Below the pieces are notes generated by a model that was not told where the DNA came from, searched no databases, and saw nothing but the letters and a program-made list of their open reading frames with translations. A DNA stretch of 44,482 nucleotides from NCBI GenBank assembly GCA_964479425.1, contig CAYZMD010000002.1, positions 1 to 44,482 of the forward strand, read 5' to 3'. This stretch comes from an uncultured Methanosarcinales archaeon. GTDB taxonomy: Archaea; Nanobdellota; Nanobdellia; Woesearchaeales; CAYSVS01. Below are positions 8,860-25,584 of the stretch, in pieces (the stretch's first letter is position 1; each line of letters begins with the position of its first letter). Position numbers and translations under genes: made by a program.

Positions 8860-9492
8860 TTAATGAAGTATCCTATTTTGTGAAAGTTCGTTTCTTATTA
8901 AATTCGTAAGTTCAATTCTTGATGGAACCCGTTCTTTTCTTATTAATTTTCTAAGATTATCTTTTGTTGAAGGTAGTGGATTCATATTGATATTGTCTAT
9001 GTTTAAGTATTGTGTTGAAGGTAGATTCATATTGATATTTCCTATGTTTAAATTTTCAGATATTATATTTGGGACGTCATTAGCCACGTAAAGGTTATCT
9101 TGTGCATTATCTTCAATACTTTTGAATGGAATTGAATTGTCTATTGCTGTTACTTTTTCTGTGGATGTTGAATTTGGAATGTATATGCTATTTGAGATGT
9201 CAGACGCTCTGTATACCTGAGAAAATTGACTAGCATCATAAGTTGGCGTATTGATGATAGTAGTATTTGAATTGTCTATTGCGGTTACATTTTCTGTGGA
9301 TGTTGAATTTGGAATGTATATGCTACTTGAGATGTCAGACGCTCTGTATACCTGAGAAAATTGATTCGCATCATAAGTTGGCGTATTGATGATAGCAGTA
9401 TTTGAATTGTATCCAGAATTAACACTATAAATATCATTTAGGTTAACTAAATCATTAACTAACGGACTGTAACCTGCAATTCCTGAAAACAT
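8860..9492 (-). CDS. Asn/Ser/Thr-rich repeat protein (hypothetical), coupled to the AAA ATPase gene
   Basis: The stop lies 1 nt before the AAA start codon. The gene contains two 45-aa tandem repeats (NTPTYDA.QFSQVYRASDIS.SIYIPNSTSTE.VTAIDNS), a short LNI.NINMN repeat and a basic amphipathic C-terminal helix. Confidence 0.6.
   Translation of the reverse strand: MFSGIAGYSPLVNDLVNLNDIYSVNSGYNSNTAIINTPTYDANQFSQVYRASDISSSIYIPNSTSTENVTAIDNSNTTIINTPTYDASQFSQVYRASDISNSIYIPNSTSTEKVTAIDNSIPFKSIEDNAQDNLYVANDVPNIISENLNIGNINMNLPSTQYLNIDNINMNPLPSTKDNLRKLIRKERVPSRIELTNLIRNELSQNRILH
9136..9405. repeat. 2 x 135-nt tandem repeat (about 95% identical) inside the 210-aa gene
   Basis: The copies at 9136-9270 and 9271-9405 differ at about 7 positions. 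A partial third unit starts at 9406. Confidence 0.9.
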
Positions 9493-18697: not shown

Positions 18698-19464
18698 TGA
18701 AAATAATCGTAATTTACATGGATCATCCCACAGAAGAACATAGAAAAACTTTTGAAGAAGTACATAGGGTTCTTAAGCAGAATAAAGTAGATTATAAATT
18801 CTATCATCGAGAGAAATTAAATGAAATTAATTTTGATATCTTTGAGCTAGCTATAATAATTGGCGGAGATGGAACTTTTTTAAGAGCATCACATTTCATT
18901 ACAAATACACTTATTCTCGGTATTAATAGTGATGTGAACAAGAAAGAAGGTTTCTTTATGCAAACAAATAGAAAGAAGTTTGTACGTGATTTTGAATTGA
19001 TTTTGGACGGAAAATATAAAATTAAAAAATCATTAAGATTAGAATGTAAAATTAATGATAAGAAATTGCCTGATTTCTGTTTAAACGAAGTTTATATCGG
19101 CTCAAAACAGCCATACCATATGTCAAGATATAATTTGCGCGTTAAAGGTATTAATGAAAATCAAAAGTCATCCGGACTGTTAATTTCTACTCCTTCCGGA
19201 AGTAATGCATGGGTAAAGAGTGCAGGCGGTAAAGTTATCGATAAAGGTTTTGAATATTTTATAAGAGAACCATACGACGGGAAATTAATGGTACATAAAT
19301 TAAAGCAAGGATTATTAAAAAATGATGAAAAAGTTATTGTAAAGTCAATGATGAAAAATGGAATAATTGTGATAGATTCTCTTTCTGAAGAATATGAATT
19401 TAATCAAGGCGATAAATTGGTTGTAAATGTTGGTAAGCCTTTGAATTATATACTGATCCGTTAA
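18694..19464 (+). CDS. ppnK: NAD(+) kinase
   Basis: IIIGGDGTFLRA (the GGDGT motif) and ISTPSGSNAW (equivalent to STPTGSTAY) are present. The start overlaps the leuS stop by ATGA. Confidence 0.8.
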   Translation: MMKIIVIYMDHPTEEHRKTFEEVHRVLKQNKVDYKFYHREKLNEINFDIFELAIIIGGDGTFLRASHFITNTLILGINSDVNKKEGFFMQTNRKKFVRDFELILDGKYKIKKSLRLECKINDKKLPDFCLNEVYIGSKQPYHMSRYNLRVKGINENQKSSGLLISTPSGSNAWVKSAGGKVIDKGFEYFIREPYDGKLMVHKLKQGLLKNDEKVIVKSMMKNGIIVIDSLSEEYEFNQGDKLVVNVGKPLNYILIR

Positions 19465-19600
19465 TGAAAATTATAATTTTACGGATTAGTATATCCTTAG
19501 AAGCTATAGCTTCTGGGACACCAAAAATTTATAATTTTTGAGTGTACAAACCACAAGAATTTAAAATTTTACTTGTGGTTCAGTATATAGAATTATAAGT

Positions 19601-19868
19601 GAAGGCACGCCAGTAGATGGATACAAAAACCAAACATTAGCTACCTCAAACTTTCCTCCACTCCGCAACCCTTAAAGCACCAACACCATGGATTAAGGCT
19701 GCTTCATTCCTGATCTGACCTGGTTCTCTAAAATGCCAGTCCATAAGGACAGAGCTTCAATGTACGATTCAAGACTAATGTAAAGCTCAAATACCGCTCT
19801 ACTGACTCACTCTACCATATAGCCCGTTTATAGTTACAGGTAGGGGCTAACTACCCAGCTACGCCTTC
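19601..19868 (-). ncRNA. Signal recognition particle (7S) RNA
   Basis: On the minus strand, the Alu-domain motif CCUGUAAC lies near the 5' end. The S-domain helix-8 motif ACCAGGUCAGAUCAGGAAUGAAGCAGCC is present. The termini GAAGGC.../...GCCUUC pair. The segment is a G+C-rich island. Confidence 0.88.
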
Positions 19869-19890
19869 AAGACAATAGATTCTAACATGG

Positions 19891-20007: not shown

Positions 20008-20844
20008 ATGACAAGCAAAATCACATTTCTAGGAACTGGAGGAGATTCTTACACTTATGCGAAACAATATAGAGGAAGTGGAGGATTTATTCTTAAAATC
20101 GACAATGCACAATTTCATGTTGACCCTGGACCTGGGGCTACTGTTCGTGCTGCAGAAAATGGGATTAATCTTCGAGAGAATACTGCTGTACTTGTTTCAC
20201 ATAATCATCTTGGACATTGTAATGATGTAAATACTGTTATTGATGCAATGACTTATTCGGGTCTAGATAAAAAAGGAGTTCTTATTTGTAATACTACACT
20301 AATGAACGGTACTGAAAAGATGAAAGGGTATTTAACAGATTTTCATAAAGATTGTGTTGAAAAAATAATTGTCTTAGAGCCAGAGAAGAAAATTGGTATT
20401 CAAAATATAGATATTGTTGGAACAAAAGCTAAACATACAGAACATAGTATTGGTTTTAAATTTATAACACCCAATTTTACTTTAGGTTATACTTCTGACA
20501 CAAAAGTAACTAATGAAATTATTGATCAATATGAAGGATGCGATGTTTTAATCATGAATGTTGTTGCGCCTCCGGGTGTGAAGATTGAAGGACAGATGAA
20601 TTGTGATGACGCTGTTAGGATGATTAGTAAAGTAAAACCTAAATTAGCTATAATTACACATTTCGGACTTAAAATGTTAAAAGCAGACCCTATCTATGAA
20701 GCTCGTGAGATACAGAAGAAAACAAATGTGCAGGTGATTGCTGCTAAAGATGGAATGGTTGTTAGTCCAGGAAGTTATGCTGCAAAAGCTAAGCAAAAGA
20801 ATCTATTGAATATGGTTAGAGGAAATCAAAAACTTCACGAATAA
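20008..20844 (+). CDS. Metallo-beta-lactamase-fold hydrolase
   Basis: KITFLGTGG...FHVDPGPG...VLVSHNHLGHCND is an HxHxDH-like motif with Gly in place of Asp. TTTATTAA lies about 24 nt upstream of the ATG, suggesting a leaderless mRNA. Confidence 0.7.
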   Translation: MTSKITFLGTGGDSYTYAKQYRGSGGFILKIDNAQFHVDPGPGATVRAAENGINLRENTAVLVSHNHLGHCNDVNTVIDAMTYSGLDKKGVLICNTTLMNGTEKMKGYLTDFHKDCVEKIIVLEPEKKIGIQNIDIVGTKAKHTEHSIGFKFITPNFTLGYTSDTKVTNEIIDQYEGCDVLIMNVVAPPGVKIEGQMNCDDAVRMISKVKPKLAIITHFGLKMLKADPIYEAREIQKKTNVQVIAAKDGMVVSPGSYAAKAKQKNLLNMVRGNQKLHE

Positions 20845-20873: not shown

Positions 20874-21473
20874 TTATGTGGTTCTTTTTATTTTAAATAA
20901 AGGTTTTTTATGTTTTAATAACCAATTTTTTCTTAATATGCCCCAATTATATTCATCAACCCATTTTTGTGTCTTTTTATTATAATATTTATCTCTAAAT
21001 ATTCCTTCTAATTTAAAATTTAATTTATACAGGACTTTTTGTGATGCAAAATTACCAGGATCTGTATCTGCTGTAGCTTTATAAAATTTAACTTTTCTAA
21101 ACAAATAGTCTACAAAACATGCTGCAGCCTCGGTAGCATAACCTTTACCTCTATGTTCTTCTAAAAAAGAATATCCTATTTCTCCAATTTTATCATTATA
21201 CCAATCAACATGATCTAAATCAACATAACCTAAAAGTATATTTTCTTTTTTTAGAAATACTGCTAAATAATAACCTTGTTCTTGTGCTAAAATATGATTT
21301 TTAATATAATCTTTTGCTTGCTCAATCGTTTTTAGTGGTTTTTTAGTTCTACGATTAAGCCATCTAGACTCAACTAATAATTTGCTATCCTTTAATACAA
21401 AAGGTCGCAAAAATAATCTTTTAGATTCTAACTTTGATGCTTTACGCACTAATTTATTATTTGTAAGTATCAT
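20874..21473 (-). CDS. GNAT-family N-acetyltransferase (RimJ/RimL-like)
   Basis: RLFLRPFVLKD...EIGYSFLEEHRGKGYATEAAACFVDYLF...ADTDPGNFASQKVLYKLNFKLEG is present. I start the gene at the internal Met (MILTNNK) because the track's longer ORF runs into the duplicated fragment. Confidence 0.8.
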   Translation of the reverse strand: MILTNNKLVRKASKLESKRLFLRPFVLKDSKLLVESRWLNRRTKKPLKTIEQAKDYIKNHILAQEQGYYLAVFLKKENILLGYVDLDHVDWYNDKIGEIGYSFLEEHRGKGYATEAAACFVDYLFRKVKFYKATADTDPGNFASQKVLYKLNFKLEGIFRDKYYNKKTQKWVDEYNWGILRKNWLLKHKKPLFKIKRTT

Positions 21474-21556
21474 CGTAATATTGATTATAAATTCTTTATT
21501 AATAAAATTTTCTATTGTTAGCTTTAATAAAATTAATCTACGTAAATTACTCAAAG

Positions 21557-21737
21557 AATTAAAAGTAAAGCATACCCAATTAAACATCCTGCACTCACAA
21601 AAGGCATTGCTGGATAATACTTATCTTTCTTTGCATAATAGAATAAAAGGAATAATGCTATTGCAGTTGTTACTGGAATAATCATTGTCTTTAGTAATCC
21701 GTATTTTATTAGAAGTGTTCCTGCAAAAATTAAAGGG
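21557..21737. repeat. Copy A of a perfect 181-bp direct repeat: an orphan copy of the last ~61 codons of the presenilin/SPP-like gene
   Basis: It is identical base for base to 24152-24332 (offset 2,595 nt) on my by-hand comparison of all 181 positions. On the minus strand it encodes PLIFAGTLLIKYGLL...YYPAMPFVSAGCLIGYALLLI. Confidence 0.92.
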
Positions 21738-21751
21738 GACCATATATCTTT

Positions 21752-24070
21752 TTATAAAATCTCTTTTAATTTATCTTTATATTTTGTATAAATAAATGAT
21801 ACTAATAATAATATTACACCCAATACAATATATGAAATAGTACGATATATTGTTTCTAAATTTCTTGTATCATATAAGAATACCTTCGCAATTATAATAG
21901 AGAATATCAACATTCCCTGCATTCTTAAATGTTTTTTTCTAAACATAAATCCACTTATCATAATTATTAATGCTAAGATGCTCCACCCTATTGAAATCCA
22001 GAATTCTTCCATTTCAATCATGATTAAAACAAATGAAAGAAATGTTCCTGCGTACGAAAAAATATTAATTAAAATAAATTCAGATTTATCTAAAATTTCT
22101 TTTTTATTATCCAAAAACCAACTTATAATATAAAATGTAAAAATTGGAATTATAAAAGCAAATAAACGTGTACTTAAAAGTAAATTATTAGCATTGAAAT
22201 CGTTTAAATACCATGAATCATAAATAAGGACTTTAAAAAATAATATTATAGATATTGCAATTGATTGATAGAAAATTTCCTTTTTATCTGCATTAGATAC
22301 CATAATATATATTAAAGCAATAATAGATAAAATTATTGATATCCATACAGCAGAATTTTTAATCAATTCTAAGAAAATAATTATGATTAAAAAACTAGAA
22401 GCTGCCCAAGAATATAATAAAGGAATAATAAATTCATCTTCAGGGAGCATTTCCTTATTCTTTTTTAGCAGTTTATAGATTAAATAAAAACAAATAATTG
22501 TTACCAAGAATGAGAACAATCTTGTATCGTTGACTTTATTAACCAAATTAAATTTATCTAGAAAAGTTATATCATAAATAAATGTTTTAAATGCTGCGAC
22601 AAATTTATCCAAATAATTTATGTCATAAGTAAGTGTTTTAAATGCTGTAATAATTCCAACAATATATGAACCAATTTTTAGAGTGTTAATCTTTAATTTT
22701 AAAAACAGAATTGTAAGAATCAATGTTTCTAAGGCCCAAACGATAGTAATCCATTTATTATTAAGTTGAATTGGTATTGTTAAAGTTATATATAATAAAG
22801 CTAAGTATAAATGTGTAATAGCAAATTTATCTTCTTTAAGAAGCTGTGATATAAAGTATGCTATAAAGTAAATTACTGAAAAAATTAATGTAAATAATCC
22901 AGTATAATCAGGATAATATTTCTCAATTTGAAAATAATATAATATAAAAAAGAATGATGAATTTATAAGAATTATTGCAATATTTTGATCAAATATTTCT
23001 TTCTTTTTCACCAAGAAAAAAGATTGTATAGTAAATGCAATAAAAAACGAAATGAGAATAAAAGAAGAGTACATGAATGAATCTGGATTATTCATGGTCC
23101 ATTGCATATACACAAGGTAAGAAATTCCTACTCCACCTAAACCAATGACTGACCATTTTTTATAAGAAACAACAATAACAAGGCCGATTGTAAGAAGTAA
23201 ACTATAGACAATAGCCATAAATCCAAAATGATTATTTAATAACGAAGTAATGTATCCTAAGAAAAAAGATTCAGCAGCTATTATCTGTGAGTTATCTCTC
23301 AGTGAAAATAATATCGCAAAGATAACAATTAAACTCAAAAGAACTATATCAAGAGTCCTACTTATACCAATTGCTGTCTGATATTCTTTGAAATGATATG
23401 CAGCAAATGTAACAAAATAAGTTATAGCAAAACCACCACCTATGAGGGTTTTTGCCCAATTGGCATATTTTTCTTTCTTTGATACGATTTCTCCAAATAC
23501 AATAAGGGCAATACCAAAACTAACACCCATAATAATTCTTGCTAAATGGCTGATCCAATTCATATCAATTGCATATTTAATAAAAAAACCAATACCAACC
23601 ACTAAAGCCAAGATACCAACTCTTGCAAACCATTTCATACCAACATCTTCTTCAAAAGATATTTTTTCCTTTTTTGCTTTTGGTTGAATAACTTTCTCTA
23701 TTTTTACTTGTTTTTTTACTTTTATAGGTTTAGCATTTCCTTTTACTTCAGCCATTGTGCCTTTTGAACTTTTGCTAGCCAAAAATAATCCTAAAATAAA
23801 AAGTGGCACTCCTATAATAGCTCCAATAATAGTTAAACATAAAAGTCCGCCAATTATTATAAAAATAATTCCTCCTAATAGCATTGAATTATCTTGTTTA
23901 TAAATTTCTTTGTTTTTACTTATGACGGGAGTAGAACCTTTTTCAATTGTAAAAATTCGCTTATTTATTCCGTCTTGATTCTTTTGAAGGTAAGTAATCC
24001 ATTCATTTGTTATTTTATTTTGTTCCTTTAATGAATCAATTTCTTTTTTTAAAGATTGAATAGTTGGCAT
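21752..24070 (-). CDS. Large polytopic membrane protein (about 20 or more TM helices) with N-terminal coiled coil; DUF2339-like
   Basis: The 772-aa protein starts with a helical region (SLKKEIDSLKEQNK), followed by a K-rich linker and a long series of hydrophobic helices. It has its own AT-rich TATA region at 24075-24110. Confidence 0.7.
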   Translation of the reverse strand: MPTIQSLKKEIDSLKEQNKITNEWITYLQKNQDGINKRIFTIEKGSTPVISKNKEIYKQDNSMLLGGIIFIIIGGLLCLTIIGAIIGVPLFILGLFLASKSSKGTMAEVKGNAKPIKVKKQVKIEKVIQPKAKKEKISFEEDVGMKWFARVGILALVVGIGFFIKYAIDMNWISHLARIIMGVSFGIALIVFGEIVSKKEKYANWAKTLIGGGFAITYFVTFAAYHFKEYQTAIGISRTLDIVLLSLIVIFAILFSLRDNSQIIAAESFFLGYITSLLNNHFGFMAIVYSLLLTIGLVIVVSYKKWSVIGLGGVGISYLVYMQWTMNNPDSFMYSSFILISFFIAFTIQSFFLVKKKEIFDQNIAIILINSSFFFILYYFQIEKYYPDYTGLFTLIFSVIYFIAYFISQLLKEDKFAITHLYLALLYITLTIPIQLNNKWITIVWALETLILTILFLKLKINTLKIGSYIVGIITAFKTLTYDINYLDKFVAAFKTFIYDITFLDKFNLVNKVNDTRLFSFLVTIICFYLIYKLLKKNKEMLPEDEFIIPLLYSWAASSFLIIIIFLELIKNSAVWISIILSIIALIYIMVSNADKKEIFYQSIAISIILFFKVLIYDSWYLNDFNANNLLLSTRLFAFIIPIFTFYIISWFLDNKKEILDKSEFILINIFSYAGTFLSFVLIMIEMEEFWISIGWSILALIIMISGFMFRKKHLRMQGMLIFSIIIAKVFLYDTRNLETIYRTISYIVLGVILLLVSFIYTKYKDKLKEIL

Positions 24071-24145
24071 TTACTTATATTTTTTATAATATATATTTAA
24101 ATTCTCTTATTTTTATCTCTCAAAATTATTGTGTACGAGAACTCA

Positions 24146-25012
24146 TCAAATAATTAAAAGTAAAGCATACCCAATTAAACATCCTGCACTCACAAAAGGC
24201 ATTGCTGGATAATACTTATCTTTCTTTGCATAATAGAATAAAAGGAATAATGCTATTGCAGTTGTTACTGGAATAATCATTGTCTTTAGTAATCCGTATT
24301 TTATTAGAAGTGTTCCTGCAAAAATTAAAGGGAATCCCATGTCGCCTCCTCCTAAAAGACCAGATTGAACTTTTATTGTCTTTGTTCTCTTAACCTTTCC
24401 TTTGGGTTTTTGTTTTGATATTGGTTTCATAAAAGACTTAAGAGAATAAGGGACATAAAGTCCTGCAAAAACTTTTGATTCTTTTTGAAATTCAGCGAGT
24501 TTTATCATATGCTTGCTTTTCCAAACAGCATACATATCATATAATGAAATTAAAATTAATAAAATTATTGCGGTACGTGTTGTTAGTATGGGTGCAAAAA
24601 CTGCTGCTAATCCTCCATAAATAAATAATTCTGTGAAATTATGAATAAATATATTCGGTCGCCATATTTTAAAATATGCAAATAATATTGCTATAAATAA
24701 TCCTGCCCTTCCCAAAAAAGGAACCCATGCATAAGTTAAAGTAAAAAAAACAGCAATAAAAAACCAAATTTTCCAAAGTCCAAATAATTTGAATTTCATT
24801 AAGAAAAAAAATATTAATGTTCCTACTAAAATTGCAATGAACATATACCATGGTGCTTGCTGCTCTGGTAATACAGGTCTTCCAGGATCTTCAACCCATC
24901 CCCTTACACCAGTATCTGTAGTAATATATTGTTCAACTATCAATAATCCTATTAATTGAGATAATAAAAAAAGTAATACTAAGAAGAATGTAATTCTATG
25001 ACTGTGTTTCAT
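24146..25012 (-). CDS. Presenilin / signal-peptide-peptidase family intramembrane aspartyl protease (A22)
   Basis: A multi-TM protein with LYD (SLYDMYAVW), GxGD (LLGGGDMGFP) and a PAL-like PAMP motif, in the correct order and spacing. Confidence 0.75.
   Translation of the reverse strand: MKHSHRITFFLVLLFLLSQLIGLLIVEQYITTDTGVRGWVEDPGRPVLPEQQAPWYMFIAILVGTLIFFFLMKFKLFGLWKIWFFIAVFFTLTYAWVPFLGRAGLFIAILFAYFKIWRPNIFIHNFTELFIYGGLAAVFAPILTTRTAIILLILISLYDMYAVWKSKHMIKLAEFQKESKVFAGLYVPYSLKSFMKPISKQKPKGKVKRTKTIKVQSGLLGGGDMGFPLIFAGTLLIKYGLLKTMIIPVTTAIALFLLFYYAKKDKYYPAMPFVSAGCLIGYALLLII
24152..24332. repeat. Copy B of the 181-bp direct repeat (functional 3' end of the presenilin/SPP-like gene)
   Basis: See copy A. 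The repeat boundary falls within the Gly-Phe-Pro codons immediately 3' of the GGGD active-site motif. Confidence 0.92.
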
Positions 25013-25584
25013 GTTAATTGTTGAATTCCTGCTATCCTTAATTGTTGAACTATTTCTTTTAAACTACCTTCGCAGTTTTCAATATCTTCTAAAAACCCAA
25101 GTATTTGATTTTCATTAAAATTTCCTTTCGCATATACACATGTCATTTCCTGATTTTTAAATAAATCCTTAACTTCCTGTGGTTCTTCTTCGCCCATTGC
25201 TACTATTTTTTTTGTTAAAATACAATTGTCTGCTGAGTATTCTACTGTAACTGTATCTTCGATTTGTTCAAATGTTGCCTTATCGCAATTATTTGCAACT
25301 TCTAAAAAACAACTGCTAGATTTACAGGTTGATAATGATGTTGATATTGATATTAAACCAAATATTACTAAACTTATTAAAATCATAACTCCAGACACCA
25401 TTATAAATTGTTTATTTCTAATATAGAATGGAGCTTGTTGTTTTTTGTACTTTTTGAATAAATCATCAATCATACTATCAGTGTACTTTGCTTTTTTTAG
25501 CTCTTTTCTTATTTTAGTAAAAGTACTACCTTTTTCAAGACTAATATGTATGATTTTCATCAAATCTGCGATTGGATCTCTCAT
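25009..25584 (-). CDS. Single-pass (N-in) membrane protein with Cys-containing extracytoplasmic domain, coupled to the protease gene
   Basis: A basic cytoplasmic N-domain (KKYKKQQAPFYIRNKQ) is followed by one TM helix and a ~110-aa C-terminal domain with 6 Cys. It overlaps the downstream gene by ATGA. Confidence 0.6.
   Translation of the reverse strand: MRDPIADLMKIIHISLEKGSTFTKIRKELKKAKYTDSMIDDLFKKYKKQQAPFYIRNKQFIMVSGVMILISLVIFGLISISTSLSTCKSSSCFLEVANNCDKATFEQIEDTVTVEYSADNCILTKKIVAMGEEEPQEVKDLFKNQEMTCVYAKGNFNENQILGFLEDIENCEGSLKEIVQQLRIAGIQQLT

Follow-up and report, generated by a model that had tools for sequence, protein, structure and literature searches.

The contig CAYZMD010000002.1 of an uncultured archaeon assigned to the Woesearchaeales (GenBank assembly GCA_964479425.1), whose full 44,482 nt constitute the window analysed here, carries an intact gene for a presenilin/signal peptide peptidase (SPP)-type intramembrane aspartyl protease, together with a second, detached copy of the 3' end of this gene. 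The detached copy, or orphan, lies behind the neighbouring gene, which encodes a 772-aa membrane protein with a DUF2339 domain. We interpret this locus as the probable outcome of a homology-anchored recombinational insertion, leaving what may be called a gene-end displacement scar, rather than as an autonomous att/integrase element. This interpretation builds on the layout of the locus, the conservation of its flanks, the patchy distribution of its cargo, the lack of any recombinase or site signature, and the presence in the same genome of sister scars, the copies of which show selection-shaped divergence. All positions are given on the whole window, which is contig C2 of a metagenome-assembled genome (MAG) of 1.65 Mb (222 contigs, 30% GC). 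Copy B is the upstream copy, located within the protease gene, and copy A is the orphan (Table 1).

Exact comparison bears out the perfect 181-bp direct repeat that had been noticed by eye in the window contig: positions 21557-21737 and 24152-24332 are identical, in direct orientation and with an offset of 2595 nt (865 x 3). Pfam and the translation likewise agree with the original prediction that copy B is the 3' end of a presenilin/SPP gene, from after GGGDMGF through the PAL-like motif, and that copy A begins in frame with the 772-aa gene, 14 nt past its TAA (...KEIL-stop-KDIWSPLIF...LLLIL-stop). The direct repeat is therefore the target gene's own end, and its upstream copy completes an intact gene. 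The protease, DUF2339, orphan and GNAT acetyltransferase sequences all lie on the minus strand. Homology had been described as decaying abruptly at both outer edges. This holds for the 5' edge, beyond which identity drops to 30-35%, that is, to background, but not for the 3' edge. After 181 nt without any difference, the copies show one non-synonymous mismatch in the final codon (ATT, Ile, in the gene and CTT, Leu, in the orphan), then share TTTGA, which includes the stop codon. The tails that follow the two stop codons (De behind the gene, Dc behind the orphan) are still identical at 36 of 60 positions in register, against a background of about 20/60, a level reached by only ~7e-6 of the AT-matched 60-nt windows of the MAG. 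Blastn merges repeat and tail into a 236-nt match at 92% identity, although the similarity between the two tails is not significant by gapped local alignment against shuffled sequences (p ~0.06). These related but diverged tails argue that the donor and recipient alleles had long been apart. Sequence comparison revealed no likeness between De, which presumably holds the DUF2339 promoter, and the protease tail of a relative from the same genus (G002).

Table 1. Features of the protease/DUF2339 locus, in window coordinates
Feature	Position	Strand	Description
Presenilin/SPP-type intramembrane aspartyl protease gene	24146..25012	-	Intact, 288 aa; PF06550, translation
Repeat copy B	24152..24332	-	Last 60 codons of the protease gene minus the final codon; exact 181-nt match to 21557-21737
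Tail De	24071..24145	-	75 nt between protease stop and DUF2339 start; in-register similarity to Dc
DUF5362 + DUF2339 polytopic membrane-protein gene	21752..24070	-	772 aa, full length; PF10101, E 1.7e-63
Spacer	21738..21751	-	14 nt from DUF2339 TAA to orphan; non-homologous junction; identity to the protease gene at background level upstream of 21737
Orphan copy A of the protease 3' end	21551..21737	-	Exact part 21557-21737, then CTT TGA; second tblastn match 21554-21748
Tail Dc	21474..21550	-	77 nt between orphan stop and GNAT start
GNAT acetyltransferase gene	20874..21473	-	199 aa; PF13302, E 2.3e-25; second accessory gene of the gap
MBL-fold hydrolase gene	20008..20844	+	Convergent neighbour of the protease gene; far side of the variable gap

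Judging from its sequence, the target gene is predicted to encode an active intramembrane protease of the presenilin/SPP (A22) family: the PF06550 match (E 5.6e-14) scores 52.7 bits against a cut-off of 23.9, and the translation carries SLYDMY, GGGDMG and YPAMPF, corresponding to the YD, GGGD and PAL-like PAM motifs. The protease is found in 37 of 41 genomes (here and below, 40 relatives searched together with this MAG). Its nearest counterparts share just 55-58% identity, and its relatives are labelled Woesearchaeota or Nanoarchaeota. The layout agrees with the original prediction of an insertion that kept its target gene intact and stranded a spare 3' end, as the protease directly faces an MBL-fold hydrolase gene, with neither DUF2339 nor GNAT in between, in a same-genus relative and across several families of the order. 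Among these relatives, whose proteases show at most 58% protein identity to the one studied here, the genes flanking the insert adjoin where the insert is lacking. In G002, whose MBL protein is 78% identical to its counterpart here, the two genes are convergent and 145 nt apart, with neither DUF2339 nor GNAT; the convergent pair abuts in G003 and G005, and is nearly adjacent (~0.5-0.6 kb) in G004 and G009. The gap reaches 1.8 kb with other open reading frames (ORFs) in G007 and 6.4 kb with six other genes in G006, while here it spans 3.3 kb and holds DUF2339, the orphan and GNAT. As both the size and the content of the gap vary among relatives, different lineages gather different accessory genes between the protease and MBL genes. 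In another genome of the same genus (G001), the protease gene is absent from the position facing the MBL gene. The MBL gene, which is kept across the order, is also matched to PF23023 (Anti-Pycsar Apyc1-like) in the precomputed list of the collection.

The accessory genes of the gap are distributed patchily. DUF2339 occurs in 5 of the 41 genomes and a GNAT homologue (E <= 1e-10) in 4, neither being present in either of the two same-genus genomes; the 199-aa form of GNAT is also called in an ENA contig (L034). The nearest DUF2339 homologues are 58-73% identical and reside in unrelated neighbourhoods, and the loci fetched around them show no direct repeat of at least 35 nt and no protease gene. 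Composition gives no sign of a foreign origin in terms of GC content at third codon positions (GC3) or tetranucleotides: the DUF2339 region is low in GC (25%), yet its GC3 (0.18) is that of its neighbours and its tetranucleotides are host-like. The DUF2339 gene also contains a tandem 51-nt duplication (22550-22651, 80% identical), which adds 17 residues (AFKTLTYDINYLDKFVA) to the protein and is absent from all six aligned homologues.

Insertion of a transposon or insertion sequence (IS) does not fit the locus, since the repeat consists of 181 nt of gene sequence and there are neither inverted repeats nor a transposase ORF. A site-specific integrative cassette requires closer consideration. The 181 nt would then be the attL and attR of a small element, or of its remnant, moved by an integrase acting in trans, and the locus would resemble cases in which a prophage enters a protein-coding gene and replaces its 3' end with one of its own. 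In the icd gene of Escherichia coli, prophage e14 and phage 21 integrate in this way, each providing a new icd 3' end, with a spare copy left over. As in those cases, the target remains whole, the insert (here a 2.6-kb unit) is flanked by directly repeated copies of roughly the final 50-60 codons, and identity stops at the gene end. Moreover, tyrosine recombinases are encoded in the MAG (six PF00589 matches above the Pfam cut-off and two weaker ones, several of the proteins being 430-464 aa long), all of them on other contigs. However, e14 and phage 21 encode an integrase and an excisionase with a defined crossover site, none of which is found here. The lack of an integrase in the unit, already noted in the original prediction, is confirmed and extends to the whole contig: no recombinase or transposase ORF lies between or beside the repeats (only DUF2339 lies between them), no tRNA or Rfam match falls in or beside the repeat, and the ends of the unit bear no terminal inverted repeats. 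The cargo is a single, housekeeping-looking membrane protein with host-like GC3, and no DUF2339 cassette with protease-end flanks, or other recurring att flanks, was found at the homologous loci examined. Besides, inspection revealed no motif shared by the junctions of the four scars in the MAG, and the repeat lengths (165-787 nt) and synonymous divergence of the sister scars (described below) point to homology-driven events. We thus regard a site-specific cassette as very unlikely. Of the two mechanisms envisaged originally (att-like, Campbell-type integration, or homologous recombination with a circular intermediate), the locus is compatible with homologous recombination, the fragment being circular or linear, while the att-like, site-specific element finds no support, for want of an integrase, a tRNA or non-coding RNA target, inverted ends and recurrence.

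Sister scars were found by comparing the MAG with itself and reading the resulting matches. In C9 (10840-12567), a second copy of the final 165 nt of a HAD hydrolase gene lies 1113 nt downstream of the first, with 95.8% identity; the cargo, on the strand opposite to the orphan, consists of a 119-aa ORF and a Polbeta-type nucleotidyltransferase, which together look like a toxin-antitoxin pair. C31 (1685-5442) holds an array made of a 303-aa HTH and S-layer-like gene, a 150-aa gene, a 265-nt 3' orphan (90.6% identity), another gene of 317 aa and a longer 3' orphan of 787 nt (93.6%). Each of the two orphans extends to the stop codon and follows a different cargo gene. C105 (382-2327) is a mirror case, with a 5' orphan. 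Six of the seven differences between the C9 copies fall at third codon positions, as do 37 of the 45 differences of the long C31 orphan (36 synonymous versus 5 non-synonymous codons). Because these differences are mostly synonymous, the copies diverged as working genes in separate lineages and were brought together later, as predicted by a homology-anchored import from a relative. The copies thus differ as selected alleles with a synonymous bias at C31 and C9, which is not the case at the protease locus. C9 is reproduced at 100% by independent contigs (JGI, Logan), and the C31 array is spanned at 99.87% by an independent megahit contig, as far as that contig reaches.

A single scheme may account for the protease locus. 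Ancestrally, the protease and MBL-fold genes would have faced each other across a short gap. The donor would have been a related archaeon with DUF2339 just behind its orthologous protease gene, and the incoming fragment would have comprised the 3' part of that protease gene, its tail and DUF2339. A crossover through the homologous 3' part of the protease gene would have anchored this fragment, the other end of which would have been joined illegitimately at 21737/21738. The fragment could have been circularised and integrated by a single (Campbell-type) crossover, or it could have been linear and captured by homology-facilitated illegitimate recombination, with the same product. This product would read, in order, intact protease, incoming tail, DUF2339, stranded old 3' end with its own tail, and GNAT. 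We infer the recombination route, its direction (that is, which copy came in) and the timing of the insertion; taking the GNAT side as the incoming DNA is an equivalent reading.

Several known systems yield comparable arrangements. Among them are the gene-end ('C-terminal') displacement arrays at Rhs, contact-dependent inhibition (CDI) and Vibrio cholerae type VI secretion system (T6SS) effector-immunity loci, which have been attributed to homology-facilitated illegitimate recombination (PMC5361080, citing Jackson et al. 2009, de Vries & Wackernagel 2002, Prudhomme et al. 2002 and Meier & Wackernagel 2003). In those arrays as in our MAG, homology within a conserved gene serves to anchor the DNA that enters, and the former 3' end is displaced downstream, where it persists as an orphan with a stretch of the conserved gene in front of it. 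The process involves no recombinase gene, and successive events produce arrays (compare C31). They differ from the protease locus in that the displaced end is here identical to the new one, with nothing diversified, the target is a housekeeping protease where theirs is a polymorphic toxin, a membrane protein takes the place of the immunity gene as cargo, and the host is a DPANN archaeon. The scars also match both outcomes of a Campbell-type single crossover, as obtained with suicide plasmids: a 3' fragment gives an intact gene, the insert and a 3' orphan (C2, C9 and C31), and a 5' fragment gives a 5' orphan, the insert and an intact gene (C105). Unlike in the laboratory case, the natural source of a circle is only hypothetical, and a linear fragment or unequal crossing-over between alleles gives the same product. 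Finally, as with integron cassettes, single-gene cassettes are added promoter-proximally and older ones pushed downstream, but IntI integrase, attC and attI sites are all absent here, and the repeats are pieces of the neighbouring gene.

Perfect identity between the copies had been taken to indicate a recent event. This is unsupported, given the ~40% divergence of the tail past the stop codon, the occurrence at C31 of exact patches in diverged repeats, and the behaviour of a k=141 assembly (see below). The identity of the 181 nt would result either from a near-identical donor or from later gene conversion by the live gene, and in neither case does it date the insertion; it may reflect homogenisation rather than youth. 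Pushed further, this leads to the alternative of an old duplication kept identical by gene conversion, i.e. an ancient insertion whose orphan has repeatedly been overwritten by the live gene (concerted evolution). The tails, similar far above chance in register yet clearly diverged, are as expected under such a history, and so are the exact patches of 263 nt and ~110 nt (the latter measured by eye on the printed alignment) inside C31 copies that are otherwise 6-9% diverged. Three C31 sites also change jointly in both copies between two assemblies, which could mean either that the copies evolve in concert or that an assembler has collapsed alleles. Lastly, single-nucleotide polymorphisms (SNPs) between samples are clustered around the locus (4 in 64 nt at 25476-25539 and 6 in 67 nt at 20454-20520, the sequences being otherwise identical over kilobases), which is the expected pattern of short recombination tracts between strains. 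Exact patches, co-varying sites and clustered SNPs thus point to active short-tract recombination or gene conversion. Nevertheless, an old homogenised duplication still requires the same initial insertion, so that it changes the timing and not the mechanism; the tail similarity on which it draws is not significant in gapped alignment against shuffles; and a conversion tract covering exactly the whole orphan would be a special case. We consider this alternative distinctly unlikely.

The other main concern is the assembly itself. The MAG contains thirteen 100-N gaps and one 10-N gap (in C3, C6, C12, C16, C22, C52 and other contigs), two of the 100-N gaps being flanked by exact 55-nt duplicates, as well as within-contig exact repeats longer than 141 nt. 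Its contigs therefore look like scaffolds of a K=55, paired-read, SPAdes-like assembly. (What had looked like a '101-nt exact repeat family' was traced to the 100-N scaffold gaps.) The layout could accordingly be an assembly ambiguity, in which a graph loop (repeat, DUF2339, repeat), created by a 2.6-kb circle or by mixed strains, was walked once; in a milder form, the layout would be real and copy A would not be identical to copy B. Among the assemblies compared, the interior of copy A is spanned by the window contig only. Coming from the GNAT side, three independent contigs stop at 21550, 21557 and 21586, that is, at the edge of copy A. From the other side, an ERZ27315925 megahit contig extends from a giant gene across the protease gene, copy B and DUF2339, stopping after the first 43 nt of copy A (21695). 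One of the three GNAT-side contigs, from another sample (ERZ27315937), has CC>TT at 21575-21576, inside copy A, and SNPs within the 181-nt repeat could have been collapsed by the assembler. At C31, all eight differences between the MAG and the megahit contig L052 (1999-2098 and 4810-4930) are inside the repeated stretch. From the way it works, a de Bruijn graph with k=141 cannot pass a perfect 181-nt repeat, and the k=141 unitig nevertheless passes copy B; copy A is thus probably not identical to copy B in ERZ27315925, or its arms were lost. No model invoking k-mer sizes, the popping of bubbles or an allele with a deletion accounted for all the facts about where the k=141 contigs end.

Set against this, both outer junctions of copy A are found in independent assemblies: the end of DUF2339, the 14-nt spacer and the first 43 nt of the orphan in megahit contig L025, and the last 30 nt of the orphan with the GNAT tail in another ENA contig. 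Copy B and the protease-DUF2339 link are unbroken in two independent assemblies (an ENA megahit contig and a JGI contig), while a protease-GNAT link is seen in none. The C9 and C31 scars, with their diverged copies, are reproduced by other assemblers. Furthermore, the k=141 graph would likewise be branched if an episome coexisted with an empty site, which leaves the megahit contigs equally unaccounted for. Overall, we consider an assembly-level ambiguity rather unlikely. The perfect identity of the copies, like the recency once drawn from it, is not secure, because only the SPAdes-like contig spans the orphan and the k=141 assembly stops inside copy A.

The homology-anchored insertion that we favour has to accommodate several observations that weigh against it. 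With K=55 scaffolds, the 181-nt repeat is bridged only by read pairs, and a graph loop would be written out exactly as the layout that we see. The k=141 contigs of ERZ27315925 pass copy B and end 43 nt and 1 nt into copy A from its two sides, which is hard to reconcile with a perfect, single-copy repeat. Neither of the expected parental states has come to light: looking up the exact sequences of the protease, DUF2339 and MBL proteins and of the two forms of GNAT returned no protease-GNAT link (the empty site) and no further contig across copy A, and our searches found no donor arrangement, with the protease gene followed by DUF2339 and no orphan; a JGI metagenome scan with the repeat core matched only the protease-DUF2339 contig. 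Lastly, a repeat with 0 differences in 181 nt beside a tail ~40% diverged misfits one event and one clock, and an extra step, either gene conversion or a conspecific donor, is needed.

The orphan itself has neither the YD nor the GxGD catalytic aspartate; it is most likely non-functional. A 44-aa ORF can be called within it (21551..21685), but an orphan-peptide search found this peptide on record only from the window contig. The original prediction had also raised the possibility of a functional fusion, whereby read-through of the DUF2339 TAA would append the last two presenilin helices to the membrane protein. The orphan is indeed in frame behind a single TAA, and the offset between gene and 3' orphan is a multiple of three in all four instances (C2, 2595; C9, 1113; C31, 879 and 2832). 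The probability of such agreement by chance is ~1/81, or 1/27 if only the three offsets discovered later are counted, and it may be coincidental. However, the DUF2339 protein ends at ...KEIL, at the very residue where all six aligned homologues (55-68% identity) end, so that its shared frame with the orphan is, from the sequences, most likely a coincidence. At C9 the cargo is on the opposite strand, and at C31 the 150-aa cargo ORF reads the first bases of the orphan in a different frame, which makes a frame match useless for read-through at those loci. To our knowledge, no TAA read-through system has been described in archaea. The fusion finds no support in these data and we attach almost no probability to it. 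A highly speculative proposition is that this DPANN lineage regularly gains genes through gene-end-anchored cassette exchange, perhaps with the help of an enzyme, and maintains the spare ends, for example as recombination landing pads or expressed mini-proteins. The spare ends would then be more than passive debris, given that the orphans retain open frames and match the live gene exactly in patches, and that the four 3'-end scars (at three loci) have offsets that are multiples of three.

Other repeats occur in the window. A dispersed repeat of ~146 nt, which looks like a miniature inverted-repeat transposable element (MITE) from its sequence, is present in at least 14 copies on different contigs, with 80-95% identity; one copy lies at 19446-19591, directly 3' of the archaeal signal recognition particle (SRP) RNA gene (19599-19870, minus strand, RF01857). 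A tandem 144-nt repeat (95.8% identical) lies at 9132-9410, inside a 210-aa ORF (8860..9492).

Taken as a single locus, the protease/DUF2339 region is ordinary, and nothing in it points to a novel element, recombinase or fusion protein. On our reading, it illustrates how a symbiotic archaeon with a small genome gains accessory genes without mobile-element machinery, by inserting DNA of relatives behind a conserved gene, using the end of this gene as a homology anchor and leaving the old gene end behind as a datable scar. That a genome of 1.65 Mb contains several scars of this kind, including a two-step array, suggests that the process is routine there.

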